Below are positions 8,175 through 38,593 of a DNA stretch of 64,000 bases, one piece after another. The DNA is from Perna viridis (taxonomy: Eukaryota), in NCBI GenBank assembly GCA_037379345.1, contig CM074517.1, positions 20,274,001 to 20,338,000 on the forward strand, read 5' to 3'. The notes under the pieces were generated by a model. It saw nothing but the letters and a program-made list of their open reading frames with translations. It ran no database searches and was not told where the DNA came from. The translations under genes and the position numbers were made by a program. Each line of letters starts with the position of its first letter. Within the stretch, counting starts at the first letter, position 1.

Positions 8175-11100
8175 ATTTGGTAACCCTATCAGTTCTACCT
8201 TTGTGGTCTAATTTTCGCACTGAGTCTTCGGGAATTGCGGCTACAAAGACGACAAACACAAAAGAAACAACCTCAACTGGAGCTTTTATTCTTGTATCGC
8301 AAATGATACCAACATCAGTTCTAGCTACACGGTCAATGATTGTAGAAAGCGCTACATTGATTAAAGGAGAAAAGAAATCAATAGCAACTGAGCCATCATT
8401 TGTTGAAGCTTCACTATCTTCTAAAATACAAACCGTGACAATACTAACTGACGCTACCATACGTAATACAGATCAGGACACTTTCCCAAGACAACAGTTT
8501 GTGACATCGTCAATGAACAACAGTGCACTTACTGATAAATTGTTACCGATAGGTGAAACAATGTCAATGACAAATGTTCTACCATCTACTATTTCTATGA
8601 AGGAAATTGCTTCAAGAACCTCAATGGAGACCATGTCAGTAACTACAGAAAAACTGATTCAGCAAATCACAAAATCAATTGTTGTTAAAGAAATAGAGAC
8701 GTCAAAATATGTGACAGGAACAACACATAGTACACATTTATTGACGTCTCCTGTGTCGAAACTATTATCGATTGAAGCTGCAATGGCAAACGATACAGAT
8801 AGAGGTTTATCATATACTACAATAAAGGAATTCAATAATTATTCCGATAGCACATATATCAAAGTTTATGACGTAACTTCTTTATTAACACCATCGACGG
8901 GTCAAGCAATAAATGAAGCTACAATATCATCTGCAATAAGAACTAATCCAGAAATGACTAAAAATGAACACATCATTTCATTGACTTCTGTCCCGCTACC
9001 AAAATCCACCAAAGATTTTGCACATATTCCTCAAGTAGACTCAACATCATATGAAGACAGTGTGACAAATTCATTGATTGAGTCATCTTCCGTAGAGTAT
9101 ATTCAAGTTTCTACAATGGCATTTGACGCAACGGTTAATCAGATCATAAAGGCAATTCCAATTAGTCAATTAACATCAAATCCTCTTGAAGCATCGACAT
9201 CATTTGTCGACAGAAATATGTCATCATTGAAAGGAGAAGGAATATCAACTCAAATTTCGATACCACAAACTTCTCACACACCACCGTTAGTTTATGGAAC
9301 TGAAACCACATCAAGAGAAACAAAACACGTGTCAACTGACGCTCATAACTCTCTTATGGAACCCATGCCAGCATCAAGTGACACAAAATCTAACACACTT
9401 GCTTTCATCAAGTCAGTATTTGAAGTAGATGGAACATCAAATGAAGTAATAATGACAACACCTGGTTTTCAATCAATATCATGGTTAGTAACAGATACCA
9501 CATCTCAAACGACCTCAGGATTAGTATTCGAGCAAAGTGGTATTGAAACTACAAAATCAGATTTTGTAGCAGAACCGACATCAAGTGATATAAAGGTGCA
9601 ACCAGATATGGGAACCCTTTCGGTTCTACCTATGTGGTCTAATTCTCTAATTGCAGCTACAAAGACGGCAAACACAATAGAGACAACTTCAACTGGAGCT
9701 TTTATTCACGTATCGCAAATGAAACCAACAGCAGTTCAAACTACACGGTCAATGATTATAGAAAGTGCTACATTGATTGAAAGAGGAATGGAAACAAATG
9801 TAAATAATCCAACATTTGTTGAAGCTTCGCTTTCTTCTAAAATACAAACTGAGACATTACCAATTGACGCTACCATAAGAAATACAGATAAAGACACTTC
9901 CTCAAGACAACAGTTAGTGACAATGTCAATGCAAAACCATGAATTTAGTGATAACTTGTTAACATCTAGTGAAGTAATGACAATGTCAAACGAACTACTA
10001 ACAACTAATTCTAAAAGTGGAGACGTTTTAGGAAGCCCTGTAGTGACGATTTCGGAAACTGACGAAAAACCAATTAAAACATTCAAACCATCAATTGTTG
10101 TAAAATCAACGCCATCCCTTAAAATGGAGACGTCAATAAATGTGATAGGATCAACACATAGTGAACACGAAAAAACCACGCCAGTGTCGAGACAATTATC
10201 GATTGAAGCTGCAATGACAACCGATACCGAAAAAAGTACATCAAGTATTCCAATAATGAAAATCAATGATTATTCTGATAGGACATATATCAAAGTTTAT
10301 GAGGCAACTTCTTTACTAACACCTTCAACAGGTCAAGCAACAAAAGAAGCTACAATATCATCCGCTGTTAAAACTAATCCGGAAGTGACTACAAAAGAAG
10401 ACATCATTACATTGACTTCTGTCCCGCTACCAAAATCCACCAAAGATTTTGCACATATTCCTCAAGTAGACCCAACATCATATGAAGACAGTGTGACAAA
10501 TTCATTGATTGAGTCATCTTCCGTAGAGTATATTCAAGTTTCTACAATGGCATTTGACGCAACGGTTAATCAGATCATAAAGGCAATTCCAATTAGTCAA
10601 TTAACATCAAATCCTCTTGAAGCATCGACATCATTTGACGACAGAAATATGTCATCATTGAAAGGAGAAGGAATATCAACTCAAATTTCGATACCACAAA
10701 CTTCTCACACACCACCATTAGTTTATGGAACGGAAACCACATCAAGAGAAACAAAACACGTGTCAACTGACGCTCATAACTCTCTTATGGAACCCATGCC
10801 AGCATCAAGTGACACAAAATCTAACACACTTGCTTTCATCAAGTCAGTATTTGAAGTAGATGGAACATCAAATGAAGTAATAATGACAACACCTGGTTTT
10901 CAATCAATATCATGGTTAGTAACAGATACCACATCTCAAACGACCTCACGATTAGTATTCGAGCAGAGTGGTATTGAAAATACAAAATCAGATTTTGTAG
11001 CAGAACCGACATCAAGTGATATAAAGGTGCAACCAGATATGGGAACCCTTTCGGTTCTACCTATGTGGTCTAATTCTCTAATTGCAGCTACAAAGACGGC

Positions 11101-14100
11101 AAACACAATAGAGACAACTTCAACTGGAGCTTTTATTCACGTATCGCAAATGAAACCAACAGCAGTTCAAACTACACGGTCAATGATTATAGAAAGTGCT
11201 ACATTGATTGAAAAAGGAATGGAAACAAATGTAAATAATCCAACATTTGTTGAAGCTTCGCTTTCTTCTAAAATACAAACCGAGACATTACCAATTGACG
11301 CTACCATAAGAAATACAGATAAAGACACTTCCTCAAGACAACAGTTAGTGACAATTTCAATGCAAAACCATGAATTTAGTGATAAATTGTTAACATCTAG
11401 TGAAGTAATGACAATGTCAAACGAACTACTAACAACTAATTCTAAAAGTGGAGACGTTTTGGGAAGCCCTGTAGTGACGATTTCGGAAACTGACGAAAAA
11501 CCAATTAAAACATTCAAACCATCAATTGTTGTAAAATCAACGCCATCCCTTAAAATGGAGACGTCAATAAATGTGATAGGATCAACACATAGTGAACACG
11601 AAAAAACCACGCCAGTGTCGAGACAATTATCGATTGAAGCTGCAATGGCAACCGATACCGAAAAAAGTACATCAAGTATTCCAATAATGAAAATCAATGA
11701 TTATTCTGATAGGACATATATCAAAGTTTATGAGGCAACTTCTTTACTAACACCTTCAACAGGTCAAGCAACAAAAGAAGTTACAATATCATCTGCTGTT
11801 AAAACTAATCCGGAAGTGACTACAAAAGAAGACATCATTACATTGACTTCTGTCCCGCTACCAAAATCCACCAAAGATTTTGCACATATTCCTCAAGTAG
11901 ACTCAACATCATATGAAGACAGTGTGACAAATTCATTGATTGAGTCATCTTCCGTAGAGTATATTCAAGTTTCTACAATGGCATTTGACGCAACGGTTAA
12001 TCAGATCATAAAGGCAATTCCAATTAGTCAATTAACATCAAATCCTCTTGAAGCATCGACATCATTTGACGACAGAAATATGTCATCATTGAAAGGAGAA
12101 GGAATATCAACTCAAATTTCGATACCACAAACTTCTCACACACCACCATTAGTTTATGGAACTGAAACCACATCAAGAGAAACAAAACACGTGTCAACTG
12201 ACGCTCATAACTCTCTTATGGAACCCATGCCAGCATCAAGTGACACAAAATCTAACACACTTGCTTTCATCAAGTCAGTATTTGAAGTAGATAGAACATC
12301 AAATGAAGTAATAATGACAACACCTGGTTTTCAATCAATATCATGGTTAGTAACAGATACCACATCTCAAACGACCTCAGGATTAGTATTCGAGCAGAGT
12401 GGTATTGAAAATACAAAATCAGATTTTGTAGCAGAACCGACATCAAGTGATATAAAGGTGCAACCAGATATGGGAACCCTTTCGGTTCTACCTATGTGGT
12501 CTAATTCTCTAATTGCAGCTACAAAGACGGCAAACACAATAGAGACAACTTCAACTGGAGCTTTTATTCACGTATCGCAAATGAAACCAACAGCAGTTCA
12601 AACTACACGGTCAATGATTATAGAAAGTGCTACATTGATTGAAAAAGGAATGGAAACAAATGTAAATAATCCAACATTTGTTGAAGCTTCGCTTTCTTCT
12701 AAAATACAAACCGAGACATTACCAATTGACGCTACCATAAGAAATACAGATAAAGACACTTCCTCAAGACAACAGTTAGTGACAATTTCAATGCAAAACC
12801 ATGAATTTAGTGATAAATTGTTAACATCTAGTGAAGTAATGACAATGTCAAACCAACTACTAACAACTAATTCTAAAAGTGGAGACGTTTTGGGAAGCCC
12901 TGTAGTGACGATTTCGGAAACTGACGAAAAACCAATTAAAACATTCAAACCATCAATTGTTGTAAAATCAACGCCATCCCTTAAAATGGAGACGTCAATA
13001 AATGTGATAGGATCAACACATAGTGAACACGAAAAAACCACGCCAGTGTCGAGACAATTATCGATTGAAGCTGCAATGGCAACCGATACCGAAAAAAGTA
13101 CATCAAGTATTCCAATAATGAAAATCAATGATTATTCTGATAGGACATATATCAAAGTTTATGAGGCAACTTCTTTACTAACACCTTCAACAGGTCAAGC
13201 AACAAAAGAAGCTACAATATCATCTGCTGTTAAAACTAATCCGGAAGTGACTACAAAAGAAGACATCATTACATTGACTTCTGTCCCGCTACCAAAATCC
13301 ACCAAAGATTTTGCACATATTCCTCAAGTAGACTCAACATCATATGAAGACAGTGTGACAAATTCATTGATTGAGTCATCTTCCGTAGAGTATATTCAAG
13401 TTTCTACAATGGCATTTGACGCAACGGTTAATCAGATCATAAAGGCAATTCCAATTAGTCAATTAACATCAAATCCTCTTGAAGCATCGACATCATTTGA
13501 CGACAGAAATATGTCATCATTGAAAGGAGAAGGAATATCAACTCAAATTTCGATACCACAAACTTCTCACACACCACCATTAGTTTATGGAACTGAAACC
13601 ACATCAAGAGAAACAAAACACGTGTCAACTGACGCTCATAACTCTCTTATGGAACCCATGCCAGCATCAAGTGACACAAAATCTAACACACTTGCTTTCA
13701 TCAAGTCAGTATTTGAAGTAGATAGAACATCAAATGAAGTAATAATGACAACACCTGGTTTTCAATCAATATCATGGTTAGTAACAGATACCACATCTCA
13801 AACGACCTCACGATTAGTATTCGAGCAAAGTGGTATTGAAACTACAAAATCAGATTTTGTAGCAGAACCGACATCAAGTGATATAAAGGTGCAACCAGAT
13901 ATGGGAACCCTTTCGGTTCTACCTATGTGGTCTAATTCTCTAATTGCAGCTACAAAGACGGCAAACACAATAGAGACAGCTTCAATTGAAGATTTTATTC
14001 ACGTATCGCAAATGAAACCAATAGCAGTTCAAACTACACGGTCAATGATTATAGAAAGTGCTACATTGATTGAAAGAGGAATGGAAACAAATGTAAATAA

Positions 14101-17100
14101 TCCAACATTTGTTGAAGCTTCGCTTTCTTCTAAAATAGAAACTGAGACATTACCAATTGACGCTACCATAAGAAATACAGATAAAGACACTTCCTCAAGA
14201 CAACAGTTAGTGACAATTTCAATGCAAAACCATGAATTTAGTGATAAATTGTTAACATCTAGTGAAGTAATGACAATGTCAAACGAACTACTAACAACTA
14301 ATTCTAAAAGTGGAGACGTTTTGGGAAGCCCTGTAGTGACGATTTCGGAAACTGACGAAAAACCAATTAAAACATTCAAACCATCAATTGTTGTAAAATC
14401 AACGCCATCCCTTAAAATGGAGACGTCAATAAATGTGATAGGATCAACACATAGTGAACACGAAAAAACCACGCCAGTGTCGAGACAATTATCGATTGAA
14501 GCTGCAATGGCAACCGATACCGAAAAAAGTACATCAAGTATTCCAATAATGAAAATCAATGATTATTCTGATAGGACATATATCAAAGTTTATGAGGCAA
14601 CTTCTTTACTAACACCTTCAACAGGTCAAGCAACAAAAGAAGCTACAATATCATCTGCTGTTAAAACTAATCCGGAAGTGACTACAAAAGAAGACATCAT
14701 TACATTGACTTCTGTCCCGCTACCAAAATCCACCAAAGATTTTGCACATATTCCTCAAGTAGACTCAACATCATATGAAGACAGTGTGACAAATTCATTG
14801 ATTGAGTCATCTTCCGTAGAGTATATTCAAGTTTCTACAATGGCATTTGACGCAACGGTTAATCAGATCATAAAGGCAATTCCAATTAGTCAATTAACAT
14901 CAAATCCTCTTGAAGCATCGACATCATTTGACGACAGAAATATGTCATCATTGAAAGGAGAAGGAATATCAACTCAAATTTCGATACCACAAACTTCTCA
15001 CACACCACCATTAGTTTATGGAACTGAAACCACATCAAGAGAAACAAAACACGTGTCAACTGACGCTCATAACTCTCTTATGGAACCCATGCCAGCATCA
15101 AGTGACACAAAATCTAACACACTTGCTTTCATCAAGTCAGTATTTGAAGTAGATGGAACATCAAATGAAGTAATAATGACAACACCTGGTTTTCAATCAA
15201 TATCATGGTTAGTAACAGATACCACATCTCAAACGACCTCACGATTAGTATTCGAGCAAAGTGGTATTGAAACTACAAAATCAGATTTTGTAGCAGAACC
15301 GACATCAAGTGATATAAAGGTGCAACCAGATATGGGAACCCTTTCGGTTCTACCTATGTGGTCTAATTCTCTAATTGCAGCTACAAAGACGGCAAACACA
15401 ATAGAGACAGCTTCAATTGAAGATTTTATTCACGTATCGCAAATGAAACCAACAGCAGTTCAAACTACACGGTCAATGATTATAGAAAGTGCTACATTGA
15501 TTGAAAGAGGAATGGAAACAAATGTAAATAATCCAACATTTGTTGAAGCTTCGCTTTCTTCTAAAATAGAAACGGAGACATTACCAATTGACGCTACCAT
15601 AAGAAATACAGATAAAGACACTTCCTCAAGACAACAGTTAGTGACAATGTCAATGCAAAACCATGAATTTAGTGATAAATTGTTAACATCTAGTGAAGTA
15701 ATGACAATGTCAAACGAACTACTAACAACTAATTCTAAAAGTGGAGACGTTTTGGGAAGCCCTGTAGTGACGATTTCGGAAACTGACGAAAAACCAATTA
15801 AAACATTCAAACCATCAATTGTTGTAAAATCAACGCCATCCCTTAAAATGGAGACGTCAATAAATGTGATAGGATCAACACATAGTGAACACGAAATAAC
15901 CACGCCAGTGTCGAGACAATTATCGATTGAAGCTGCAATGGCAACCGATACCGAAAAAAGTACATCAAGTATTCCAATAATGAAAATCAATGATTATTCT
16001 GATAGGACATATCTCAAAGTTTATGAGGCAACTTCTTTACTAACACCTTCAACAGGTCAAGCAACAAAAGAAGCTACAATATTATCTGCTGTTAAAACTA
16101 ATCCGGAAGTGACTACAAAAGAAGACATCATTACATTGACTTCTGTCCCGCTACCAAAATCCACCAAAGATTTTGCACATATTCCTCAAGTAGACTCAAC
16201 ATCATATGAAGACAGTGTGACAAATTCATTGATTGAGTCATCATCCGTAGAGTATATTCAAGTTTCTACAATGGCATTTGACGCAACGGTTAATCAGATC
16301 ATAAAGGCAATTCCAATTAGTCAATTAACATCAAATCCTCTTGAAGCATCGACATCATTTGACGACAGAAATATGTCATCATTGAAAGGAGAAGGAATAT
16401 CAACTCAAATTTCGATACCACAAACTTCTCACACACCACCATTAGTTTATGGAACTGAAACCACATCAAGAGAAACAAAACACGTGTCAACTGACGCTCA
16501 TAACTCTCTTATGGAACCCATGCCAGCATCAAGTGACACAAAATCTAACACACTTGCTTTCATCAAGTCAGTATTTGAAGTAGATGTAACATCAAATGAA
16601 GTAATAATGACAACACCTGGTTTTCAATCAATATCATGGTTAGTAACAGATACCACATCTCAAACGACCTCAGGATTAGTATTCGAGCAAAGTGGCATTG
16701 AAACTACAAAATCAGATTTTGTAGCAGAATCGACATCAAGTGATATAAAGGTGCAACCAGATATGGGAACCCTTTCGGTTCTACCTATGTGGTCTAATTC
16801 TCTAATTGCAGCTACAAAGACGGCAAACACAATAGAGACAACTTCAATTGAAGATTTTATTCACGTATCGCAAATGAAACCAACAGCAGTTCAAACTACA
16901 CGGTCAATGATTATAGAAAGTGCTACATTGATTGAAAGAGGAATGGAAACAAATGTAAATAATCCAACATTTGTTGAAGCTTCGCATTCTTCTAAAATAC
17001 AAAGTGAGACATTACCAGTTGACGCTACCATAAGAAATACAGATAAAGACACTTTCTCAAGACAACAGTTAGTGACAATGTCAATGCAAAACCATGAATT

Positions 17101-18979
17101 TAGTGATAAATTGTTAACATCTAGTGAAGTAATGACAATGTCAAACGAACTACTAACAACTATTTCTAAAAGTGGAGACGTTTTAGGAAGCCCTGTAGTG
17201 ACGATTTCGGAAACTGACGAAAAACCAATTAAAACATTCAAACCATCATTTGTTGTTAAATCAACGCCATCCCTTAAAATGGAGACGTCAATAAATGTGA
17301 TAGGATCAACACATAGTGAACATGAAATAACCACTCCAGTGTCGAGACAATTATCGATTGAAGCTGTAATGGCAACCGATACCGAAAAAAGTACATCAAG
17401 TATTCCAATAATGAAAATCAATGATTATTCTGATAGGACATATACCAAAGTTTATGAGGCAACTTCTTTACTAACACCTTCAACAGGTCAAGCAACAAAA
17501 GAAGCTACAATATCATCTGCTGTTAAAACTAACCCGGAAGTGACTACAAAAGAAGACATCATTACATTGACTTCTGTCCCGCTACCAAAATCCACCAAAG
17601 ATTTTGCACATATTCTTCAAGTAGACCCAACATCATATGAAGACAGTGTGACAAATTCATTGATTGAGTCATCATCCGTAGAGTATATTCAAGTTTCTAC
17701 AATGGCATTTGACGCAACGGTTAATCAGATCATAAAGGCAATTCCAATTAGTCAATTAACATCAAATCCTCTTGAAGCATCGACATCATTTGACGACAGA
17801 AATATGTCATCATTGAAAGGAGAAGGAATATCAACTCAAATTTCGATACCACAAACTTCTCACACACCACCATTAGTTTATGGAACTGAAACCACATCAA
17901 GAGAAACAAAACACGTGTCAACTGACGCTCATAACTCTCTTATGGAACCCATGCCAGCATCAAGTGACACAAAATCTAACACACTTGCTTTCATCAAGTC
18001 AGTATTTGAAGTAGATGTAACATCAAATGAAGTAATAATGACAACACCTGGTTTTCAATCAATATCATGGTTAGTAACAGATACCACATCTCAAACGACC
18101 TCAGGATTAGTATTAGTATTCGAGCAAAGTGGTATTGAAGCTACAAAATCAGATTTTGTAGCAGAATCGACATCAAGTGATATAAAGGTGCAACCAGATA
18201 TGGGAACCCTTTCGGTTCTACCTATGTGGTCTAATTCTCTAATTGCAGCTACAAAGACGGCAAACACAATAGAAACAACTTCAACTGGAGCTTTTATTCA
18301 CGTATCGCAAATGAAACCAACAGCAGTTCAAACTACACGGTCAATGATTATAGAAAGTGCTACATTGATTGAAAGAGGAATGGAAACAAATGTAAATAAT
18401 CCAACATTTGTTGAAGCTTCGCTTTCTTCTAAAATACAAACTGAGACATTACCAATTGACGCTACCATAAGAAATACAGATAAAGACACTTTCTCAAGAC
18501 AACAGTTAGTGACAATGTCAATGCAAAACCATGAATTTAGTGATAAATTGTTAACATCTAGTGAAGTAATGTCAATGTCAAATGTACTGCTAACAAGTAT
18601 TTCTAAAATGGGAGACGTTTCAAGAAGTTCCTTTGTGAGTCAACCTATTTCACCAATAACACAAAGTAATACTGCTCTATCTACAACTTTAGTACCTTTT
18701 TCAAGAACTACAGCAGCACGGTCCTTGTCATCAACTACGTTATTAGATAACTTGGACCAATCCTCATCGTTTAGTACAACAACACCAACAACAATATTTT
18801 CGACATCTGTTCCGATACATACTGGCACGCAATTTTATTCACTCACTACCGTGCCTTCAACGACACAATGTGCAAAAATAATCTCAATAAAAATGACCAT
18901 CGCTTATAAGATCATTTTTCCTCTGAGAGATCATAGTAGTCTTATATACAAGGAGTTGTTCAACTACACAAATGTTGCC
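8175..18979 (+). CDS. Giant mucin, PTS exon 1 (10,805 nt; 477-aa repeats) plus start of SEA-like domain
   Basis: Uninterrupted S/T-rich ORF. Acceptor TTTTATGTTCATAG| (phase 1) and donor GCC|GTAAGT (phase 0). It ends in IISIKMTIAYKIIFPLRDHSSLIYKELF, resembling the SEA N-terminal L-x-D-x-x-S-x-x-Y/F-x-x-L pattern. Confidence 0.92.
8183..18590 (+). repeat. Coding tandem repeat, 1431-bp unit, about 7.3 copies
   Basis: Identical landmarks recur every 1431 nt (antisense ORFs at 9736, 11167, 12598, 14029, 15460, 16891). The first ~800 bp are diverged. The last unit has a 6-bp duplication near 18110. Confidence 0.98.
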
Positions 18980-19440
18980 GTAAGTATAAAATACTCATAC
19001 ATACTTTTTATTTAACCGACTGAAATACTTATAAAAGATCAAGGAATAGTTATAATGTTTTCTTACTTTAATTCAAAACTTTACATAAGTGTACATAAAT
19101 AAATCATTTTTTTATTCGCCTTTCAACTGACATTGAAAACATTCTTGAGTTCGGCTATATAATGACATTGGATACCTGTACACGTATAGTGGATGACCCG
19201 GAATGACTTCAATGAGATACCAGAATATATCATTATGGCATGTTCACTAAAAGTTGTTCTCGCGTGTTTTAATATAATTTACAGGTACATTTTCAATTGA
19301 TATCTCTACCTCGCTACATTCTTTGTTGTCTTCTTTTTGACATCTAATATAACACGTATTGCATATAGCAATATTTCCACAAACCGATTGACCGTCAGTT
19401 CATTATTTGGTTAATAAGAAGTCTTCGCCACCGTCGAAAA

Positions 19441-20303
19441 TGTATCAATCTGTACCATGACAACTGAACTGTTCAACGTGTCAAAGTTTTCCTTTCCTCT
19501 TTTGTCTGCCTCATACTTGACTTTTCATGAGCAACTATGTGGATTTTTCTAGAAAAACAGAGGACGCTTATTATGCTCTTAGTTTTAACTGGAGTCCGAG
19601 TTGCTTGTTAATTATTCGTACTTTGTATGTATTATTTTATTATTATATGTTCGTTGTTGTGCTTGTCTGCTTTCCATGTCTGTGATCATGGAATCAACAG
19701 AATATCATATAAACCCAATACATATTTGCAATACAGTTGAATCTGAACTAAAACATAACCGTAAACTGAAAAATAATAAACACATGAGCAACTGTCAATA
19801 CAATTGTATTAGTGAATGATGGTAGTTGAAGCGGTTGGTCATTTGAAAACATGTGACGAGAGTTTCTAATTTGGTCTAAGAGGCGTGACATTATTAAGTT
19901 GATCAGAATTCTCATGGTCTCGGCCTGTTTAATTAAAGATTGCATGTTACGTACACTGAAACATCCGTATAATTATCGGATGTCCTAATACTTTGAGCGG
20001 AGAAAATGGTTCAAAAATGACACTTGTTTAAAGATATACTACATGACTGTATTTGGTATCACTTCGGATGTATTTTAAATCCCCTTCGAGCTAGGCTTAT
20101 TGCAAATGTTTCCTGTGGTGTAGTTTTCGAATATTCAAGGTCAAAGTTAAACACCAAAGACTCTAAAGGGTTAACAATCTTTGCATTTTTTGGCAATCTT
20201 TTAAACCATGCTCTTTGTTGTATATGTCTGTTTTCCATGTCTGGTCTTTGTCCTTGAATTGCATTCTTGAGATTACCGCTATAATCTTGGTTCCCTTGAT
20301 TAC
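19441..20303 (+). mobile_element. Two fragments of the Penelope-like 3' end (19441-19682 and 20210-20303)
   Basis: Similar to 29625-29948 and separated by ~530 bp of unrelated sequence. Confidence 0.75.
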
Positions 20304-20728
20304 TTTTTGACTCACCTTAACAAAAGTTTCACGTGCTTTAGTGAAGGTATTTTTGTGGATACTTTATATAGGAGGAATGTTATGTCTTGATGCGATATAG
20401 TCGACATTTTGTTTAATTTTATGTATTGAATACATGGTATATCAAGATATGCTATCGAAGGTTCCAACAAAATACTACGAAGAGCAAAGCGACAGATGGG
20501 ATTTAAAAGCTTGCCATCTGCTTACATGTTTATCTACAAACACAATTTTACGACGATTCTTAAATTTGAAGTATTTAGTTCAACTATATTCTAGCTGATA
20601 AGTTTGGTAGACAATGGAAATTCCAAGCCGCCCTTAATCAGTTTCCAATTTATATGTATCTAATGACTACTACGTCTCAAATGATTCGAATAATAATGAC
20701 TATATGGAATATTTTCCCTCCATTTTAG

Positions 20729-20799
20729 CTTTGGAATTTTTATAACGGATCTGAAGGAATTGGTAGCGCACTGAAAAATTTAACTCTCATAGAAATAAG
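20729..20799 (+). CDS. Giant mucin, SEA-like exon (LWNFYNGSEGIGSALKNLTLIEI)
   Basis: Acceptor CCCTCCATTTTAG| phase 0, donor AG|GTTCGT phase 2, open frame. Confidence 0.8.
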
Positions 20800-20997
20800 G
20801 TTCGTTCATTCTTTCAATCAACAAAATGAGCTAAATAACATGTAATTGCAGACATGCAAGAATATATTATTAATTTGAAAAATAATACAAAACACAATTA
20901 AAGCAATTTTATGCTCTTTCAAACGACATTTCACTTTACAATGAAAATATGATATGTTGTTATGTGTCATTACTTATTTTACGTTGATTACTTTTAG

Positions 20998-21045
20998 GCG
21001 ATCTGACTCAGTAAAACTCAGGAGGAAAAGATCTGAGAACTTAAG
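20998..21045 (+). CDS. Giant mucin, 48-nt phase 2-2 exon with furin site (RRSDSVKLRRKRSENL)
   Basis: Acceptor TTACTTTTAG| and donor AAG|GTCGGT, in frame with both neighbours. RRKR matches R-X-K/R-R. Confidence 0.75.
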
Positions 21046-24000
21046 GTCGGTAAAGGAACTATTAAGGCTAAGCTCTCGGGCAAACGATCTGTATGGATGT
21101 TTACTGATAATCAAAACAACTAAATCGTATCATTTTCTTTTATTTAGTCTTTATTTAACTTGACCTGACGATAATCTCAGAAGAAAAGATCGTTTAAAAT
21201 ATGAACGAAATTACTGACAAAATAATTTGCCGAGCGATTGTATCAAATAAATCAGGTAATCCTTTTTTCAGTTTGGCACGTAACATGATACTATTGATAT
21301 TTTATTTGTCAAAAATATTGATAAAGTAGCAGTTTATTCATCTTTTATACCAGGTTATGAGTTTACATCAACAATAAGGCTGCAATTCAGAGAAAGCACA
21401 TGGATGCCCGATGCATGGCACATGCCCAATGATATTCGCAAACTATTTTTTTATCCGTTGGAGCTCACAAACTCATTTTTTATAACAGATGTTAATCTTT
21501 AATTTGTTGAAATGATAAGAATGAATTATTTTACATAGATTGCACTTACAAAAACTATAAAATAAAGGGTAACAGTTTTTTTTCTGCTAACAAGACCTTT
21601 TGTGGATAAGGATAATTGCGTTGTTGTTATTCAGAACTTGAAAGATAAAGGCTGGCTGTTCAGAAACTAAAAAGGCTTATCAAAATGACTGTTCTACAAA
21701 ACTTTTAAAAAATAGGCCAAAAGTGTTCACTGTCTGTTTTTCCAATACAATTTTAACTGCAACTTGTTTAAACTAACATCAATATAGAATTTAACTCTGA
21801 AGTTATCTGACTTTGTGTTATATTAATTATTCTCGACTAAACAAATGATAATAACTTTAAGCAAACAGCAATCTTATAATTCAACTCAACATGATGCAAT
21901 ATAGCAACATATAGTAGTGTAGCAGGGGACGATTTTCGTTGATTTGCTTCAATAGTATTAAACACGGCCACATAATATATTGTTGGAAAGAGCGAATGAT
22001 GATTATCCGGATATCGATATTGTGGCTGTCTATCGTGGACACCGGCGGTAAAAATCTGGTCGAAGATTAATCATTCATATGTGAATCAATTGTTTTTGAC
22101 TTTTCAAATGTGTATAACGTATTTCGTTTTGTAGACAATCAAGCCTTAATACATCAAATAATAGCTTAGCATGTATGGTTCATATTCAAAAGTATTTGAT
22201 TTCTGTCTGTTATATAAGGACATCATTAAGTAGAAATTACAAATTTTGACGTTTCATACATGTTAAATGTGAAGATGATTTTTTGATTTTAATTTTATTC
22301 CCTTTCTTCTGAAATCGTGAAGACTATATTTAAAAGATGCTGTTGAATTCATAACATTTTGTTATCCAATTTAATTACAATTAGCACTATAGATTCCATT
22401 CAATCAGTGTATGTAGGATCAAACAGCGGATATTAAAATCAATTGGTAGTCCTTTATAGTTTTATAGTAAATCAAATTGCATTTCCCCTTTAAATGAAGA
22501 TATTATAAGTTTCTCCTGAGCACTATTCAATACACAATATATAAAAGTTAACCGATCATAGTTATTACATGATTCAAACCCTTTTTTTTTTCGATTTAAA
22601 ACAGGTGCTTTTAAACGAATCCGTTCCTGCCTTTATAACTCACCCAACCAAAATTGCGATAATAAAAAGGAATGTCTACGTGACATATATCAATATTAAA
22701 CAAATGCACAAATAAAACAGAGAATCATACTTAATTTTACAGACAGTTAGTGACTAGTTTTAATCCATTTAAAAAAAAACACATGTTGCAATGTTTAGAC
22801 AGTGTGAACCACAAATCAAGTACATGTGGTAACCCGTGAAGACATGGGTTTCAAATGTAATAGGACATATCGCTTGAACGGTTAAAATGTTAATTTTAAT
22901 CTAATCATTGTTCAATATCATTATTCAGAGATAACTTTTATATATATTTCCCTTATATTATTAAAAAAACGATAAACTGTTGGTATATTTTTGTCTCAAT
23001 ATAAAAAATTCAAACTACTAATGGAATATCGAAATTACTTAGTTCTATTTGGTGTGAACATGGAGTATGAGTTTGAAAAAAACATAATGTAGGCTTACAA
23101 AATAAAAGACCTTTTGTTTTGTTAAAATTGTATTTAAAATTCACTGTCATAATATTACAATGGGGGTACCTTAACTTTCAAGAAAAGTGACCATGGTAGA
23201 TAACGACAACATGAATAAATTAAAACTGCATGTTTTCTTTCGACTGAGACTTAAAGCAGCCGTCATACTAACCCAAGATAAAAAAAAAAACTAAAAGTAT
23301 TTTAAATGTTCACTTCCATTATAATATCAATGAACTACGTGACTAAATAAACGGTTCTAATTACATAGTCAACTTCATCAAAACGATTAATATTCGGGTA
23401 AATAACCGAAATATATTCCGTACATCGCACAGGTTAACGAGTTAAGGAACTTGTTAACGAGTCAAATAGTCAATCGTTCTCGGCACGAGTAATTGTATTT
23501 TGTTTATAAACCAATGCATTATCATTCCAGTATTTATTGTATAAAATTATTCCTAAATTCATTTCAAGATAAATTGTTTATTTTTGATCGGTGTATTGAT
23601 TTTAGCACGAGAATGTCCGAGAGTGAAATTACCAAATTGATTTTAATGTGTGAAATGTTTTTTTACACAAGGTACATTTAATACATCATTGCTTCCTATT
23701 TAACAAATCTGTATATTTTTTGTTCTAAAATAGGATATTTTCTTTAACTACACAGACACAAGAAAATCTTAAGGACCAAAAACATATTGTATACCCTCAA
23801 AATATGTTATTAAGCAATTTACAAAATGAAAATAATCAACATTCTTTTAACAATAAATCGTAAAACGCCACGTGTTTTAAAAAAAGTGGTATATGTAGCC
23901 GCTTATTTTACTCGCCAAGAAAAATAAGACGGTTCTACTTTCTATAATTTCGCGTTGGTATTCATTATAAAAACAAATAACAATTACCGGATGAAAATCG

Positions 24001-25438
24001 GATTCAATCAAATATCTTATAGTTACAAGTATCTTGCTATAAATGAAAACAATAAAATAACTTATTAAATTAACTTTACATAATAGCATCATTCTATCGT
24101 ACAAACAAAATATGTAAATTTGACTTTGAATATCAGTTGCCATGGTAACATGTGACCTCAAATGGTCGTTGCTAAGGACAATATTTTGATTTTGACCAGT
24201 TTTCCATTAAAAAAATTGCATAAGATCTCCAGAAGTTTTCATAGACAAATTAGTTCATCATCTTTTTTCTAAATAAATGTTGAGATCTCTAAATATGACA
24301 AGAGTTTAAAAGATCTTGATAAACTACAAATATGAATATGGGCCATTGTGTTTTTGAAATAACAGTTTTACGTTTTTGGCAATTTTCCTAAATTGATCAC
24401 TTTAAAGCCATAGGAAATCATGATAATTTTATCCTTGGGAATGTGCTGTCGATCAAAAAATTACCCCCATCGAAGGAAGATAATTCATTATTATAAAAAA
24501 TAATTGACATCATACACTGCATAAATACTTATTCCACTGAAAAAAAATCATTTTCAATTGTGCAAACAAGGAAATTAAGTGTTTTTTTTATAAGTAATGA
24601 CATATGATAATAAATGAGATTTAACTATTTTTTTTCTAACCATTCACTTTTGGAAGGTCTATCCACTTTATTGTTAAGATTGTTTTTACCAGAAATCCCC
24701 TTCTTTTAATTTAATTTCATGTTCTAATCATGATAGATAATGTACCTTATTGTTACCTCTGAGATTGATATAATATCCAAAAAGTTTCAATTTATTAGGA
24801 CGCTGCCACAAAATGTGGCGATCGACTATTTTAAACACTCTGTCCGTGCGGCCGTAATTAAACCTTGTCACGGTTTTAACATTTTTGCCTTAAGAGATGG
24901 GCTTTTGATATTTGATATGCATATAGGTCACCCTAAGACAAAGTATTTAATATCATGATTGATGAACTTTGACCTCGAATTTTGACCTAGAGGTTAGTTT
25001 ATTGATTTTTACATAGCGTTTTCTTGTCCAGGCTGTATGTTTTTGTCTTATAAGATTGGCTTTTTTATATTTGGTATGTGAATATATTACCTCAAGACGA
25101 TGTGTTGTGAATTCATGGATGAATACCTTCGACTTTGAACTTTGACTTTGAAGTTGAATTATTTGCATTTTTTTCTCCAGGCTCTAATATTTGTGTCTAA
25201 TAAGAATGGTATTGGTATGTCAATATATCCCGACAAAACAACGTGTCCCGCAGCATGGACGATGACCTTTGACTTTGAACTTTACCCTGGGGTTAATCAA
25301 TTGATTTTACATGACCCCTTCTTGTCAGAGCTGGAACTTTGTCTTATGAGATCTGCTATTGATAAGGTCATCTCTTGGTGATGTGTTGCGTATCATGGGT
25401 GATGACCTTCGGCCTTGAACTTTGACATTAAGGTCTAT

Positions 25439-26070
25439 TATTGTACCCCACTTGAAAAGTGGGGTGTATTAAGTGGTAGAGGTGTTTGTCCGTCCTCCCG
25501 TGACACAAGGGTTGCCAATCTCTTATTCATTACTCTTTCTACACCACTTTATGGAATTGAATGAAACTTTTGCTGAATCTTTATAACATATTTCCATTTT
25601 TTTTTTAATTTTGATCCCAATTTTCGTGTTTTACATATCAAAGCAGGTACTTTGTCAATTGTGAAGAAGGGTAAATTGAACGATCCATCTCTTATCCGGC
25701 ACTCCTCCTATCTCCTACATATCTAAAATGAATTGAATGAAACTTTCCTAGAATCATTACCGATATTACTTTTTTTCACATTGTTACCTTCTATTTTAGA
25801 ATATGATCCAAAGCAATTCAGGGGTTTCACATATCAAAAGATGGACTTTGCTATTTGTAAATTAGGGACATTGGGACCCATTTCTTATCCATTACTCCTT
25901 CTTCACCACTAAATGGAATTGAATGAAACTTTCACAGAATCATTACTGTATGTTCCCATCGTGTACCTCTTATTTTAGATTTTGATTCAAATAAAAATGT
26001 TGGTTAGAAAGGTCATGTTACTTTCTATTAAATGGGGAATTGGGTATCAAGTATTGAGCATTGATCACAT
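25439..26070 (+). mobile_element. Non-autonomous Helentron-type (HINE/DINE-like) element with ~180-bp internal tandem repeats
   Basis: 5' inverted repeat ACCCCACTT-GA-AAGTGGGGT followed by GTCCGTC. Three units contain GAATTGAATGAAACTTT (~25555, 25730, 25916). The 3' end has GGGTATC plus a short hairpin. Confidence 0.65.
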
Positions 26071-27496
26071 TTTAAACAAGAATGGCTGTTAAGTGGACCG
26101 GAAACTGATCATAGACTCCTTTAAGGTCCTTATTAGACACAGAACATTTGATTAAGACTTTAAGTAATTTGTGTTATATGATGTTTTCATTAATTTTGTG
26201 CTGGGTTGTTTTTCCCAATATGTGCAATTAATTCAAGTGGAATTTATTTTTGGATAGCAAAGAACTCAGATATGGAAAAAGTTTTTTTTATTTCAGTCTA
26301 ATTGAAAAACAATCGTACAATGTATTATACATGTATATGTATTTTTACGTTCTATTATTTCATTTATAAGATCACTGTTGCCAGAATGTTTTATGGTAGA
26401 AGAATAAGGGCCGGAATTTTTCAAGTTACATCACTCTTGTAACTTTCCTTTGAGGATTGCAATAGAAAGGGGAAGGATGGAAAAAGTTACTAATACAACT
26501 TTAAATCGAAAATTGAGTCGACCAGATGCCATCCCATTGACTGTTATGATGCGAAAATTTTATTTTATTTAGAAGTGTAGAAGTTTTGTATATGACAATA
26601 CTGGATATTTTACAGTAATCTAATATCTAATATTTGATCAATTAAATTGAGTTAGGCTAACATTTTATAAGGTTCAAATACAGAGTAAACATGTCAGTAT
26701 GGTTAAAAAGCACGGGAATTCCCCAAAGTGTCAACAATTATGCCCGGTCTTCATTTTCTTTTTAACCATTTGACTAGCATATCTTATTTATATATGTTAT
26801 AGTAAATAAACAATATTTAACCCCCATCCCCCCCCTCCAAAAAAAAAGCACAAATCAAAAATCACCAAAATCATGAATCCCTTGCGCTAAGTCATGGTGC
26901 ACGTTCATGTATAAATACATTTCCCATAATAAAGGGAAAGAACTCTTACTCATAAATGGACGTGCAATTTGTCTTTGAGTTTTCGTCAGTACGTCTCCAT
27001 TTTCTCATTAAGATTCCCGTACTAAGGAAGTAATAGATCGTCTTTTCGTTAGATCACTCTAGCGGAAGTTCAATATCACTGAGCCGCACCAGTTCTGTAT
27101 CTTAAATCATTGAAAGAAATTGCTTTCTGCTAATGGTATTCCTGTCACTATCAGCACATTAGACGGGAAGATATCTTTAAATTATAAATTATAACTCTTT
27201 TGGAACCAGTAATTATAAATTGCAAGAGGAAATTTAAATGATGAAGGCTTGGATGACTATATTAGGTTCTCCGTTTCTTGTATTTTCTTCTCCATATCAA
27301 TAAAAATTATATAATCAAAAAAGGATAATTCCAGCCGCATGTTTGAAATTGAACCTTTACTACATGTACCTTTTAATTCGTCTCAAAAGATCATTGCTAT
27401 ATCAACAATTACCGAAGCAGTCCGCATTTCATTATCATGAAAGTAGTAATCGAAAGTAAAATTGAGTTTCTCACACACATTAATTTACAATATTCT

Positions 27497-27707
27497 TACT
27501 GTAAACCGTCACATTTGCACGGCTGTTTCAATTTAGCTATTGTCGAGGTAAGACCTGTAGCACGAAAATGAAACTGTCGTGAATATTTTTTTATAAGAAA
27601 TTCTTATGTGATTCGGGGAACGATTACAACTTTAAAGGTATTTAATAACAGTTTGATCGCATAAATCGCGAAAAAAAGACGGCGCGAAAATTGTCTGGTA
27701 TAGAGTA
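27497..27707. mobile_element. TA-flanked MITE (TACTGTA...TAGAGTA)
   Basis: Imperfect terminal inverted repeats with CGCGAAAA-type subterminal motifs, the same style as 56469-56675. Confidence 0.5.
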
Positions 27708-27745
27708 ATCATATGCATTGCAAATATCTTTCGATACTTTTACAG

Positions 27746-27930
27746 TGCCTCTTCTTTGGTAGCAAACCACACTCTTAATTTTGACACCACAAATTTAGAC
27801 GATACGGCGTTCAATGTGATGTTATTACGTACTCTTATGAGATCAACATCAAATTGCAGCATATGTTTAAATGGAACTTGTGTGAAAGCAGATAGTGCCG
27901 AAACCAAAGATGTACCCGTTTTTCAAAAAA
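27746..27930 (+). CDS. Giant mucin, C-terminal SEA-like exon (SASSLVANHTLNF...PVFQK)
   Basis: Acceptor CTTTTACAG| phase 2, donor AAA|GTATGG phase 1. SSLVANHTLNF aligns with the GSVVV-x-x-x-L-x-F strand of SEA domains. Confidence 0.8.
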
Positions 27931-28250
27931 GTATGGGTTTAAATCTACACAGTTATAAAAAAATGATCTCAGATTTATCAGATTTACACGATACAATTTA
28001 CATAAGCTACCACATTGTATATGAACATGCATTAATTGGCTAAATCGCTTATTTTATGTGAAGATGTATTGACAATATTTTAACATAAACGTTCAAGATA
28101 CAAGCCTTATATACATATCATTTTCTCTAAACCTTTGCTTATATGAAATAAAATAGGATTTATCGTTTTTTTCCTGTTTAAGAATGATTCAAATATTTCT
28201 TTTTAATCAAAACCAACAATTTTTACAGTTTGTATGATTGATTTTTTTAG

Positions 28251-28332
28251 TCACTCCAGAAACTGATCTGTGCAAACTTTGTGTAAATGAAACAACTTGT
28301 CAAAAAGACAACGAAGGAAAAGAATTGTGTCG
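28251..28332 (+). CDS. Giant mucin, 4-Cys truncated EGF-like exon (ITPETDLCKLCVNETTCQKDNEGKELC)
   Basis: Acceptor TTTTTTTAG| phase 1 and donor CG|GTAATT phase 2. It links 27930 to 30385 in frame. Confidence 0.8.
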
Positions 28333-28461
28333 GTAATTAGAATAAAGCTTCGTAGTTTCCAAGTAATGTAATTAAAAACAGATACGAAGGAAATTCAATG
28401 GCATTCTTTATATGATTATTTAAAACAAATGTCACTTGTTTTCTATTTTGACCTATTCATA

Positions 28462-29950: not shown

Positions 29951-30384
29951 TCAATTTAATTCTTATAATGAATTTTATGTTATATCTGCTTAAGCATAAC
30001 ATTTTAAATTATATTAAATAATGCCAACCGACATTTATTGAAAATACTGATTAACAAACAAAAGTTCTTTGTAATCTGCCCATGTGAATTTTTGACGTAC
30101 ACAATAATCAAGATTCAAACTGTAAAGAGTGGGTGTCAACTTAGAGACGACAGCAAAATATTGTACTTTACTTCTACCAAAATGCCTGTTAAAGTGCGCA
30201 ATATTACAAAACAATTAATTATATAAATAATTATACAACAGAATGATCCGGTTTAATCAAATACGACTGAATTATGTATTTTTTCTTTCTTTTGTTTGTC
30301 AGCAAATATAAAACAAACGTCTTTTTTTTCGTCTTCGATATAAGCTCCGATATAAGCTCTTAACTCTCATTTTGGTTTCAACAG

Positions 30385-33300
30385 TGATTATATTGTGAAT
30401 GTAACTGAAACGACAACTGATTACACTAATAAGGTATCAACAGTGATATCAATGGATACAGCAAAATCAGCGACATCAAAGTCTTTGAAATCAGCCTATA
30501 CAGTGTCAAAATCCAATGAGTCTTTGACTTCAACCGAGGCAGAATCAACTACCACTGAGTCTATGACATCAGCTTATACAGTATCAACTTCCAATGAGTA
30601 TTTGACATCAACCGAAGCAGAATCAACTACCACTGAGTCTTTCACTTCAACCGATGAAGAATCAACTACCAATGAGTCTTTGTCATCAACCGATACAGAA
30701 TTTACTACCAATGAGTCTTTGACATCAACCAATACAAAACCAACCACCAATGAGTCTTTGACTTCAATCGATACAGAATCATTAATGACTGAGTCTATGA
30801 CATCAGCTTATACAGTATCAACTTCCAATGAGTATTTTACTTCAACCGAGGCAGAATCAACTACCACTGAGTCCTTGACATCAATCGATACAGAATTTAC
30901 TACCAATGAGTCTTGGACATCAACCGAAGAAGAATCAACTACCACTGAGTATTTGACATCAACCAATACAGAATCAACTACCAATGAGTCTTCGTCATCA
31001 ACCGATACAGAATTTACTACCACTGAGTCTTTGACATCAACCAATACAGAATCAACTACCAATGAGTCTTCGTCATCAACCGATACAGAATTTACTACCA
31101 ATGAGTCTTTTGCATCAACCGATACAGAATTTACTACCACTGAGTCTTTGACATCAACCGATACAGAATTTACCACCAATGAGTCTTTGACTTCAATCAA
31201 TACAGAATCAACGATCACTGAGTCTTTGACTTCAACCGAGGCAGAATCAACTACCACTGAGTCTTTGATATCAACCGATACAGAATTTACTACCAATGAG
31301 TCTTTGACTTCAATCGATACAGGATCAACGATCACTGAGTCTCTGACATCAGCTTATACAGTATCAATTTCCCATGAGTCTTTGACTTCAACCGAAGCAG
31401 AATCAACTACCACTGAGTTTTTGACATCAACCGATACAGAATTTACTACCAATGAGTCTTTGACATCAACCGAAGCAGAATCAACTACCACTGAGTATTT
31501 GACATCAACCAATACAGAATCAACTACCAATGAGTCTTTGACTTCAACCGAGACAGAATCAACTACCACTGAGTCTTTGACTTCAACCGAGACAGAATCA
31601 ACTACCACTGAGTCTTTGACATCAACCGATACAGAATTTACTACCAATGAGTCTTTGACATCAACCGAAGCAGAATCAACTACCACTGAGTCTTTGACAT
31701 CAACCGATACAGAATTTACTACCACTGAGTCTCTGACATCAACCGATACAGAATTTACTACCAATGAGTCTTTGACATCAACCAATACAGAATCAACTAC
31801 CAATGAGTCTTTGTCATCAACCGATACAGAATTTACTACCAATGAGTCTTTTGCATCAACCGATACAGAATTTACTACCACTGAGTCTTTGACATCAACC
31901 GATACAGAATTTACCACCAATGAGTCTTTGACTTCAATCAATACAGAATCAACGATCACTGAGTCTTTGACTTCAACCGAGGCAGAATCAACTACCACTG
32001 AGTCTTTGACATCAACCGATACAGAATTTACTACCAATGAGTCTTTGACTTCAATCGATACAGGATCAACGATCACTGAGTCTCTGACATCAGCTTATAC
32101 AGTATCAATTTCCCATGAGTCTTTGACTTCAACCGAAGCAGAATCAACTACCACTGAGTATTTGACATCAACCAATACAGAATCAACTACCAATGAGTCT
32201 TTGACTTCAACCGAGACAGAATCAACTACCACTGAGTCTTTGACTTCAACCGAGACAGAATCAACTACCACTGAGTCTTTGACATCAACCGATACAGAAT
32301 TTACTACCAATGAGTCTTTGACATCAACCGAAGCAGAATCAACTACCACTGAGTCTTTGACATCAACCGATACAGAATTTACTACCAATGAGTCTTTGAC
32401 ATCAACCGAAGCAGAATCAACTACCACTGAGTATTTGACATCAACCAATACAGAATCAACTACCAATGAGTCTTTGACTTCAACCGAGACAGAATCAACT
32501 ACCAATGAGTCTTCGTCATCAACCGATACAGAATTTACTACCAATGAGTCTTTGACATCAACCGATACAGAATTTACTACCAATGAGTCTTTGACTTCAA
32601 TCAATACAGAATCAACGATCACTGAGTCTTTGACTTCAATCAATACAGAATCAACGATCACTGAGTCTTTGACTTCAACCGAGGCAGAATCAACTACCAC
32701 TGAGTCTTTGACATCAACAGATACAAAACCAACCATCAATGAGTCTTGGACTTCAATCGATACAGAATCAACGATCACTGAGTCTATGACATCAGCTTAT
32801 ACAGTATCAACCTCCAATGAGTATTTGACATCAACCGAAGCAGAATCAACTACCACTGAATCTTTCACTTCAACCGATGAAGAATCAACTACCAATGAGT
32901 CTTTGTCATCAACCGAGGCAGAATTTACTACCAATGAGTCTTTGACATCAACCAATACAAAACCAACCACCAATGAGTCTTTGACTTCAATCGATACAGA
33001 ATCAACGATCACTGAGTCTATGACATCAGCTTATACAGTATCAACTTCCAATGAGTATTTGACTTCAACCGAGGCAGAATCAACTACCACTGAGTCTTTG
33101 ACATCAACCGATACAGAATTTACTACCAGTGAGTCTTTGACATCAACCGAAGCAGAATCAACTACCACTGAGTATTTGACATCAACCGATACAGAATTTA
33201 CTACCAATGAGTCTTTGACTTCAATCGATACAGGATCAACGATCACTGAGTCTATGACATCAGCTTATACAGTGTCAATTTCCCATGAGTCTTTGACTTC

Positions 33301-35702
33301 AACCGAGACAGAATCAACTACCACTGAGCCTTTGACATCAACCGATACAAAATTTACTACCACTGAGTCTTTGACATCAACCGATACAAAATTTCCTACC
33401 AATGAGTCCTTGACTTCAATCGATACAGGATCAACGATCACTGAGTCTATGACATCAGCTTATACAGTATCAACTTCCAATGAATCTTTGATTTCAACCG
33501 AGGTAGAATCACCTACCACTGAGTACTTGACATCAACCGATACGGAAGTTACTACCAATGAGTCTTTGACTTCAACCGAGGCAGAATTTACTACCAATGA
33601 GTCTTTGACATCAACCGATACAAAACCAACCATCAATGAGTCTTTGACTTCAATCGATACAGAATCAACGATCACTGAGTCTATGACATCAGCTTATACA
33701 GTATCAACTTCCAATGAGTATTTGACATCAACCGAAGCAGAATCAACTACCACTGAGTCTTTCACTTCAACCGATGAAGAATCAACTACCAATGAGTCTT
33801 TGTCATCAACCGATACAGAATTTACTACCAATGAGTCTTTGACATCAACCAATACAAAACCAACCACCAATGAGTCTTTGACTTCAATCGATACAGAATC
33901 ATTAATGACTGAGTCTATGACATCAGCTTATACAGTATCAACTTCCAATGAGTATTTGACTTCAACCGAGGCAGAATCAACTACCACTGAGTCCTTGACA
34001 TCAATCGATACAGAATTTACTACCAATGAGTCTTGGACATCAACCGAAGAAGAATCAACTACCACTGAGTATTTGACATCAACCAATACAGAATCAACTA
34101 CCAATGAGTCTTCGTCATCAACCGATACAGAATTTACTACCAATGAGTCTTTGACATCAACCGATACAGAATTTACTACCAATGAGTCTTTGATTTCAAT
34201 CAATACAGAATCAACGATCACTGAGTCTTTGACTTCAACCGAGGCAGAATCAACTACCACTGAGTCTTTGACATCAACCGATACAGAATTTACTACCAAT
34301 GAGTCTTTGACTTCAACCGATACAGGATCAACGATCACTGAGTCTATGACATCAGCTTATACAGTATCAATTTCCCATGAGTCTTTGACTTCAACCGAGA
34401 CAGAATCAACTACCACTGAGTCTCTGACATCAACCGATACAGAATTTACTACCAATGAGTCTTTGACATCAACCAATACAGAATCAACTACCAATGAGTC
34501 TTCGTCATCAACCGATACAGAATTTACAACCAATGAGTCTTTTGCATCAACCGATACAGAATTTACTACCACTGAGTCTTTGACATCAACCGATACAGAA
34601 TTTACCACCAATGAGTCTTTGACTTCAATCAATACAGAATCAACGATCACTGAGTCTTTGACTTCAACCGAGGCAGAATCAACTACCACTGAGTCTTTGA
34701 CATCAACCGATACAGAATTTACTACCAATGAGTCTTTGACTTCAATCGATACAGGATCAACGATCACTGAGTCTCTGACATCAGCTTATACAGTATCAAT
34801 TTCCCATGAGTCTTTGACTTCAACCGAGACAGAATCAACTACCACTGAGTCTTTGACATCAACCGATACAGAATTTACTACCAATGAGTCTTTGACATCA
34901 ACCGAAGCAGAATCAACTACCACTGAGTATTTGACATCAACCAATACAGAATCAACTACCAATGACTCTTTGACTTCAACCGAGACAGAATCAACTACCA
35001 CTGAGTCTTTGACTTCAACCGAGACAGAATCAACTACCACTGAGTCTTTGACATCAACCGATACAGAATTTACTACCAATGAGTCTTTGACTTCAACCGA
35101 GACAGAATCAACTACCACTGAGTCTTTGACATCAACCGATACAGAATTTACTACCAATGAGTCTTTGACATCAACCGAAGCAGAATCAACTACCACTGAG
35201 TATTTGACATCAACCAATACAGAATCAACTACCAATGAGTCTTTGACTTCAACCGAGACAGAATCAACTACCACTGAGTCTTTGACTTCAACCGAGACAG
35301 AATCAACTACCACTGAGTCTTTGACATCAACCGATACAGAATTTACTACCAATGAGTCTTTGACATCAACCGAAGCAGAATCAACTACCACTGAGTATTT
35401 GACATCAACCAATACAGAATCAACTACCAATGAGTCTTTGACTTCAACCGAGACAGAATCAACTACCACTGAGTCTTTGACTTCAACCGAGACAGAATCA
35501 ACTACCACTGAGTCTTTGACATCAACCGATACAGAATCAACTACCAATGAGTCTTTGACTTCAACCGAGACAGAATCAACTACCACTGAGTCTTTGACTT
35601 CAACCGAGACAGAATCAACTACCACTGAGTCTTTGACATCAACCGATACAGAATCAACTACCAATGAGTCTTTGACATCAACCGACAACCGTAGTTTATT
35701 AG
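30385..35702 (+). CDS. Giant mucin, PTS exon 2 (5,318 nt; acidic 13-aa repeats)
   Basis: Acceptor TTTGGTTTCAACAG| phase 2 and donor TAG|GTAATA phase 1. Uninterrupted T/S/E-rich ORF. Confidence 0.92.
30480..35686 (+). repeat. Coding minisatellite, 39-bp unit (ESLTSTDTEFTTN-like), about 133 copies with higher-order blocks
   Basis: GAGTCTTTGACATCAACCGATACAGAATTTACTACCAAT and variants repeat in register throughout. Confidence 0.98.
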
Positions 35703-36183
35703 GTAATAAAATCAGTTTGATATTCTTTTCAAATATTTTGAATTGAAAGTTATTTACATGAACACCGACCAAACGTGTATATTCATTCAACTTTAATATT
35801 CTGTTATTTATTTTAAGTGCTACAAATCACTATCGTTTTTACAATTAAGGTTTGCTTTTAAAAATAGTTAGAACTTATATCTTTTAACTTGTATACTGTT
35901 TCTTATTATTCCTGTTTAGTGGATAACAATATCGCTCTAATGAATAGTATAAATAGTACACGAACAATTATCGAAAGTTCAGATGTAAAGTTATGCAATT
36001 ATTGTAAGAACTAAATAATGCATGTGGACTCTTCTTTCGATCTTTTAAAAAAATCCTGTTATAGTATTTATATTTTGCCACAAAATATTAAATGATATTT
36101 TATCTATTAATGACATTATCAATTTTTGACAATTAAATTATGGAGTGATGCAGGCTATATAAAAATCTTAAAATTAATTTCAG

Positions 36184-36319
36184 AGACTTCAAATCTGGGG
36201 TTTTATGTTGGAGTTCCTTTAGTAAGTGTTGTACTGTTTATTATCGGATTGATAATCGTTACCAAAATTAACAGACAAAGACGAAATATGAGACATCGAC
36301 ATAACATACGTTTTCGCAG
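36184..36319 (+). CDS. Giant mucin, transmembrane exon
   Basis: Acceptor TTAATTTCAG| phase 1 and donor CAG|GTATCG phase 2. Hydrophobic LGFYVGVPLVSVVLFIIGLIIVT is followed by basic KINRQRRNMRHRH. Confidence 0.9.
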
Positions 36320-38437: not shown

Positions 38438-38485
38438 ATTCAGGGGTAAATCGCTTTTGGTCCCTTCGACAAATGACCGTATACC
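38438..38485 (+). CDS. Giant mucin, cytoplasmic exon (RFRGKSLLVPSTNDRI)
   Basis: Acceptor GGTTTCAG|, donor CC|GTAAGA, phase 2-2, open frame. Confidence 0.7.
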
Positions 38486-38593
38486 GTAAGACAGACTTCA
38501 GTGTCCTTGATATGGATTCATTTTTCTAAATGTGTACTTATTGTTTTATACTAAACTTAGTAAGAAACAAATAATGCTTTTTGTTTTGTTAAG

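Follow-up and report, generated by a model that had tools for sequence, protein, structure and literature searches.

Why should a protein built around two giant mucin-like stalks keep a furin-type cleavage motif between them, alone on a 48-nt exon? The question is raised by a 64,000-nt stretch of Perna viridis DNA (assembly GCA_037379345.1, contig CM074517.1, positions 20,274,001 to 20,338,000; hereafter the window), an AT-rich piece of animal DNA whose + strand bears two very long open frames, at 8141-19015 and 30356-35746. An initial annotation had read the 48-nt exon as a skippable microexon placed at the cleavage loop of a SEA domain, and had supposed that convertase cleavage has replaced autoproteolysis there and that splicing may switch a large outer domain between a shed and a tethered form. 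The reading that we favour, and hold on balance to be the probable one, keeps the cut and does without the switch: two mucin stalks would be joined by a SEA-like hinge that furin cuts in a mostly constitutive manner and whose halves stay together.

Gene model

Seven exons can be chained on the + strand (Table 1), in the order first stalk, small folded domain, 4-Cys module, second stalk and, joined by phase, a predicted transmembrane (TM) exon. Through the TM exon the model runs to about 5,548 residues with 0 stops, which places the furin-type motif RRKR near residue 3,634 and the TM helix near 5,509. This phase-chained model holds both Ser/Thr-rich repeat domains and a predicted TM helix in the same frame; the gene product is probably a giant single-pass membrane mucin. 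The model starts at a sequence-predicted acceptor, downstream of a presumed exon for the signal peptide. Beyond the chained exons, candidate small exons were noticed from their sequence at 35818-35985 (before the TM exon) and at 38439-40040 (for a cytoplasmic tail), one of which encodes an acidic stretch preceding a Tyr.

Table 1. Features of the mucin-like gene model in the window. X1 and X5 are the two RNA runs that express the gene; RNA coverage was examined over 18500-30500.
Feature	Coordinates	Strand	Phase	Content	Support
Giant exon (first stalk)	8175..18979	+	1-0	~3,600 aa; mucin-like outer stalk built of a 477-aa unit, 30% Ser+Thr	ORF; 3' end spliced in X1 and X5
Last ~40 codons of the giant exon	within 8175..18979	+		Putative strand 1 and helix 1 of the SEA-like domain; holds the single Cys that precedes the cut	
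71-nt exon	20729..20799	+	0-2	Putative helix 2 and strand 2 of the SEA-like domain	Splice signals present; inclusion from record arithmetic and bin depth
48-nt exon	20998..21045	+	2-2, symmetric	Furin-type motif RRKR	Acceptor ttttag, donor gtcggt (AG/GT); RNA records (see text)
185-nt exon	27746..27930	+	2-1	Putative strand 3, helix 3 and Cys-bearing hairpin; 3 Cys	Within X5 record 9
82-nt exon	28251..28332	+	1-2	4-Cys fragment, presumably EGF-like from its Cys spacing	Agrees with the length left over in X5 record 9; no Pfam match
Second mucin-like stalk exon	30385..35702	+	2-1	~1,770 aa, 56% Ser+Thr	5' end covered in X5 at record 9 depth; 3' donor picked by phase alone
Predicted TM exon	36184..36319	+	1-2	Predicted TM helix, then a basic stop-transfer stretch	Translation continues the frame of the upstream model, 0 stops; joined by phase only; weak TM-family Pfam matches, below cut-off

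The two stalks differ in their repeats. The exon of the first is 10.8 kb long and made of a 1,431-nt unit that is unusually long for a mucin repeat, its marker motif starting at residues 15, 492, 969, 1446, 1923, 2400, 2877 and 3356; the first 500 aa of this exon gave no match in Pfam. The second stalk holds 66.7 copies of a 78-nt repeat and 59 N-glycosylation sequons. The intron that follows the 4-Cys exon contains, at 28452-29954, a decayed reverse-transcriptase element (RVT_1, E 0.0047, below cut-off), which is very high-copy in all four of the RNA runs examined and the 3' part of which also matches 19302-19702 and 20104-20504.

The 48-nt exon and its motif

The 48-nt exon is the sole symmetric one among the seven of the model. 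The RRKR that it encodes has Lys at P6 and Ser at P1', and no other RXXR occurs in the six segments of the ~5,500-aa predicted ectodomain. When the exon is omitted, the frame stays open across these exons and every RXXR is lost. The GS[VI][VI] motif of self-cleaving SEA domains occurs in none of the 7 segments, and no Gly stands at the junction with or without the exon. The initial annotation was thus right on the existence and phase of the exon, on its furin consensus, on the frame-neutral character of its omission and on the missing autoproteolysis Gly. The word microexon should be dropped, as 48 nt exceeds the <30-nt definition found in the available text of PMC8711739.

No splice-signal feature marks the exon as a weak cassette exon. 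Its donor has the best U1 pairing of the 7 donors of the gene (-8.1 kcal), and its acceptor, with 12 pyrimidines out of 17, resembles those of neighbouring exons; the upstream intron measures 198 nt. Weak splice sites were accordingly rejected, the sites being as strong as those of the neighbours, as were an upstream TGC element (on the splice-signal check) and the idea that the exon is a local duplicate of the one before it (best local score 14). The interior of the exon offers three in-frame AG positions (21021-21030), the first of which would still rebuild RRKR; it comes with neither a pyrimidine tract nor RNA support.

Could such an exon arise by chance? Under simple splice rules, one of the five open phase-2-2 pseudo-exon candidates within 20800-27745 carries RX[KR]R, and a candidate bearing this motif was found in 4 of 300 simulated introns. 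A chance pseudo-exon was rejected on these counts and on the RNA records described below.

Inclusion of the exon in transcripts

Of 24 listed runs, four were examined over 18500-30500. Two of them, X1 and X5, consist of contigs from two studies and express the gene; the other two (X14 and X15) are raw reads, about 19% and 24% of which were read, and are uninformative on splicing because their depth on the exons is zero. Contigs drop minor splice forms. Inclusion of the exon is read from the coordinates of the records, because the joints at these exons are not among the 15 that were displayed, another 253 lying behind repeat matches. In record 9 of X5, positions 18500-18979 fall on letters 63-542 and positions 27744-27930 on letters 660-846. 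The two exon ends are thus 119 letters apart, or 71 + 48, where the skip form would leave 71. Record 1 of X1 extends 147 letters past 18979, or 119 + 28, so that it ends at 27773; if 31-letter words are assumed, a competing unspliced intron predicts an end at 27773 and the skip form one at 27771. The break of this contig at the next acceptor was therefore rejected as a mark of the skip form, its end fitting the unspliced intron.

The depth of X5 agrees with these coordinates. Observed and expected values are 2.22 and 2.21 (exon alone) for the bin that contains the 48-nt exon, 3.19 and 3.28 for that of the upstream exon, and 5.83 and 5.77 for the one in which the second stalk begins. In X1, two bins lie above the exon-only expectation (6.2 against 3.70 and 6.09 against 5.47), an excess that low-depth intronic contigs lying across the intron would explain. 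Taken together, the exon is included in 2/2 expressing runs, and the skip path from 20799 to 27746 appears in 0/2, both being contig sets from which minor forms are dropped, so that a minor or tissue-restricted skip form may exist.

It was tempting to see in this exon a regulated switch, by which skipping in some tissues, stages or stresses would give a loop that cannot be cleaved and a mucin that always stays in one piece. The exon, alone symmetric among the seven of the model, does sit ahead of a long intron (6,700 nt), and its removal would take away exactly the sole convertase motif while keeping the frame open. Splicing controls shedding sites elsewhere, as with exon 6 of KIT ligand and an APRIL isoform. 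The zebrafish Gpr126 SEA loop moreover folds without a furin site, as stated in the accessible text of PMC6954182. Against these points stand the expressing runs, neither of which shows the skip path, the upstream exon of X5, which carries no excess depth, and the splice sites, which match their neighbours in strength; symmetry alone is common, and even in a protein that has the exon, cleavage would probably fail to shed the domain. We therefore regard as unlikely that one 48-nt cassette exon decides the furin cleavability of a SEA hinge between stalks of 3,600 and 1,770 aa, and the skippable character that the initial annotation gave to the exon is not borne out by these contigs. If it were true, splicing would determine in each tissue if the outer layer of the glycocalyx can be released (by shear or by reduction of a cross-cut disulfide) or is permanent, which would amount to a simple splice control over the releasable share of the mucus coat.

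Two further observations were made on the RNA. Within 27780-27812, five positions of the assembly disagree at full depth with both X1 and X5, and four of the five differences change a residue in the C-terminal half of the putative SEA domain; allelic divergence, a haplotype difference or an assembly error could account for them. The share of RNA words also differs between samples within a study (0.06 vs 0.01 in P3, 0.06 vs 0.00 in P4), and this, with the raw-read runs devoid of the exons, hints at tissue-restricted expression, to be taken only as a lead.

Identity of the small domain

The constitutive hinge that we favour supposes that the small domain is a SEA domain, which we consider quite probable from its position and from its residue pattern. 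Hydrophobic strand and helix patterns flank RRKR on both sides, and the hydrophobic spacing and the pattern of helix 1 appear to fit those of SEA domains. The domain adjoins, and is spliced to, stalks with 30% and 56% Ser+Thr, both presumably glycosylated. RRKR agrees with the R-X-K/R-R consensus of furin-cut SEA domains and likely sits in the predicted beta2-beta3 loop.

Searches by sequence and by fold returned little. Pfam gave no SEA or EGF match on 9 pieces, searched as separate exon pieces (23-70 aa for those of the domain), and sequence searches of the PDB gave nothing better than E 0.75. A single-sequence model of 27747-27929 shows a strand-helix-hairpin at low confidence (pLDDT 52), and Foldseek run with this fragment model found 0 matches at E <= 0.001; the single-sequence model of the 40-aa N-terminal piece shows one helix, the expected strand being absent. 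Among candidate homologues, none was confirmed for the exon at 27747-27929 (0 of 15, proteins of 108-2000 aa), for residues 3545-3613 of the first ORF (0 of 19, proteins of 1993-6342 aa) or for a cytoplasmic exon (0 of 2). A phmmer search of 1.84 billion representatives gave two matches, both to low-complexity repeat proteins and both rejected, and 0 of 543 pattern matches in metagenome contigs were confirmed.

Whatever the family of the domain, the protein falls outside the MUC1-type autoproteolytic class, because the GS-hydrophobic motif is absent and because the domain lies far from the membrane, at ~1,870 aa in the model. The domain is indeed followed, within the X5 record, by the 4-Cys module and the ~1,770-aa stalk, and only then, by phase, by the TM exon. 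As for the replacement of autoproteolysis by a convertase, the part that stands is that a canonical furin motif is transcribed and that no autoproteolysis motif occurs in its place; the SEA frame in which the initial annotation had set it is a fit of position and residue pattern.

Discussion

How would the hinge work? We propose that the 48-nt exon is normally included and would encode an exposed loop of the SEA-like domain, and that a furin-type convertase would cut after RRKR in the Golgi, during secretion, in place of self-cleavage. Because the second stalk follows the domain, the cut would separate an outer part of ~3,640 aa (plus any further upstream exons) from an inner mucin of ~1,870 aa, which would be anchored in the membrane through 36184-36319. 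The two halves would be held by a shared beta-sheet and perhaps also by a disulfide from the single upstream Cys. The latter is proposed because the Cys count is odd on each side of the cut: one residue on the N-terminal side, shortly before the putative first strand, and 3 + 4 on the C-terminal side. This suggests that the upstream Cys may pair across the cut, if the 4-Cys module is self-contained. Shear, unfolding or reduction would then be needed to release the outer stalk, the inner one staying in place, and the hinge would act as a break-point between the outer and inner layers of the glycocalyx. The opposition of shed and tethered forms in the initial annotation appears too simple in this light, given that the halves of cut GPR126 stay bound, that a cross-cut disulfide is possible and that a second stalk of ~1,770 aa stands before the membrane.

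Should the domain not be a true SEA, or should its halves fail to hold, furin would constitutively free the ~3,640-aa stalk as a secreted mucin and leave a ~1,870-aa membrane mucin behind. The motif is canonical, SEA membership is unconfirmed by the Pfam, PDB and fragment-fold searches, and invertebrate membrane collagens are shed in a furin-dependent manner, according to the text available for PMC4678570. We nevertheless find this outcome improbable, as hydrophobic strand and helix patterns stand on both sides of the site, the odd Cys count of each side suggests a cross-link, and the SEA precedents described in the accessible part of PMC6954182 stay associated. It is doubtful as well that RRKR is a masked or unused basic loop insertion in a protein that remains one chain: such a reading may draw on the failure to find an orthologue in the searches above and on the persistence of GPR126 at the surface after loss of its site (PMC6954182, same part), but it has to face a full consensus lying exactly where SEA domains are cut, in an otherwise RXXR-free ectodomain of 5,500 aa, and a motif found in just 4/300 simulated introns.

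If the constitutive hinge is correct, what is new in it? Furin cleavage in a SEA loop is already known chemistry, so that the core idea is not new. MUC1 cleaves itself, and in Notch2 and human GPR126 the cut in that beta2-beta3 loop is made by furin. Zebrafish Gpr126 lacks the furin site; cut GPR126 resists separation, its halves being non-covalently joined (PMC6954182, accessible text). The same rule, either autoproteolysis or furin, is stated in the available text of 10.1101/2025.08.18.670743, which adds KIAA1549. It is the layout that looks undescribed: two giant stalks on either side of an internal SEA-like hinge in an invertebrate membrane mucin, the motif standing alone on a symmetric exon. 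Among the papers searched (mostly open-access, main texts), none was found on this gene, on a furin site with its own exon within a SEA loop or on SEA cleavage gated by splicing, and nothing for the combination of SEA domain, mucin and Mytilus. Such a layout suggests a route by which SEA domains could pass from one state to another, whether self-cleaving, furin-cut or uncut: a single small exon would be gained or lost.

Comparison with known systems

Membrane mucins are defined by PTS plus SEA in the available text of PMC1552070. With the MUC1, MUC3, MUC12, MUC13 and MUC17 type, as presented in the accessible parts of PMC1552070 and 10.1101/2025.08.18.670743, the present model has in common a Ser/Thr-rich stalk on a single exon, then a small folded domain and a Cys module, and after these a predicted TM helix with its tail. 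It departs from MUC1-type SEA mucins by the missing GS-hydrophobic motif and by the position of the domain, ~1,870 aa from the membrane and above a second stalk, and no sequence-level relationship was detected.

KIAA1549 is likewise a heavily glycosylated single-pass protein with a convertase-cut RXXR in a SEA-like domain devoid of the autoproteolysis motif (10.1101/2025.08.18.670743, available text). Its motif differs in being reported between helix 2 and strand 2 and in being conserved from human to placozoa, the protein has three SEA-like domains, and no dedicated exon for the motif is described in that part of the source. The LAR-type receptor phosphatases also have a furin-cut ectodomain whose parts remain associated by non-covalent binding, and regulated mini-exons in this ectodomain (PMC8711739, accessible sections); in those sections their mini-exons carry no furin site, and they belong to another domain family.

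A further parallel is offered by GPR126/ADGRG6 and Notch2, in both of which a furin consensus replaces the autoproteolysis motif in the beta2-beta3 loop, the loop position being predicted in the present protein. In GPR126 the furin site varies between species, some of which lack it (PMC6954182, same text), and the alternatively spliced exon lies ahead of the SEA domain and does not contain the furin site. Both are signalling receptors, whereas here the site lies between two mucin stalks and on its own symmetric exon. By analogy, we propose that the Perna protein may work as the SEA cut of GPR126 and Notch does.
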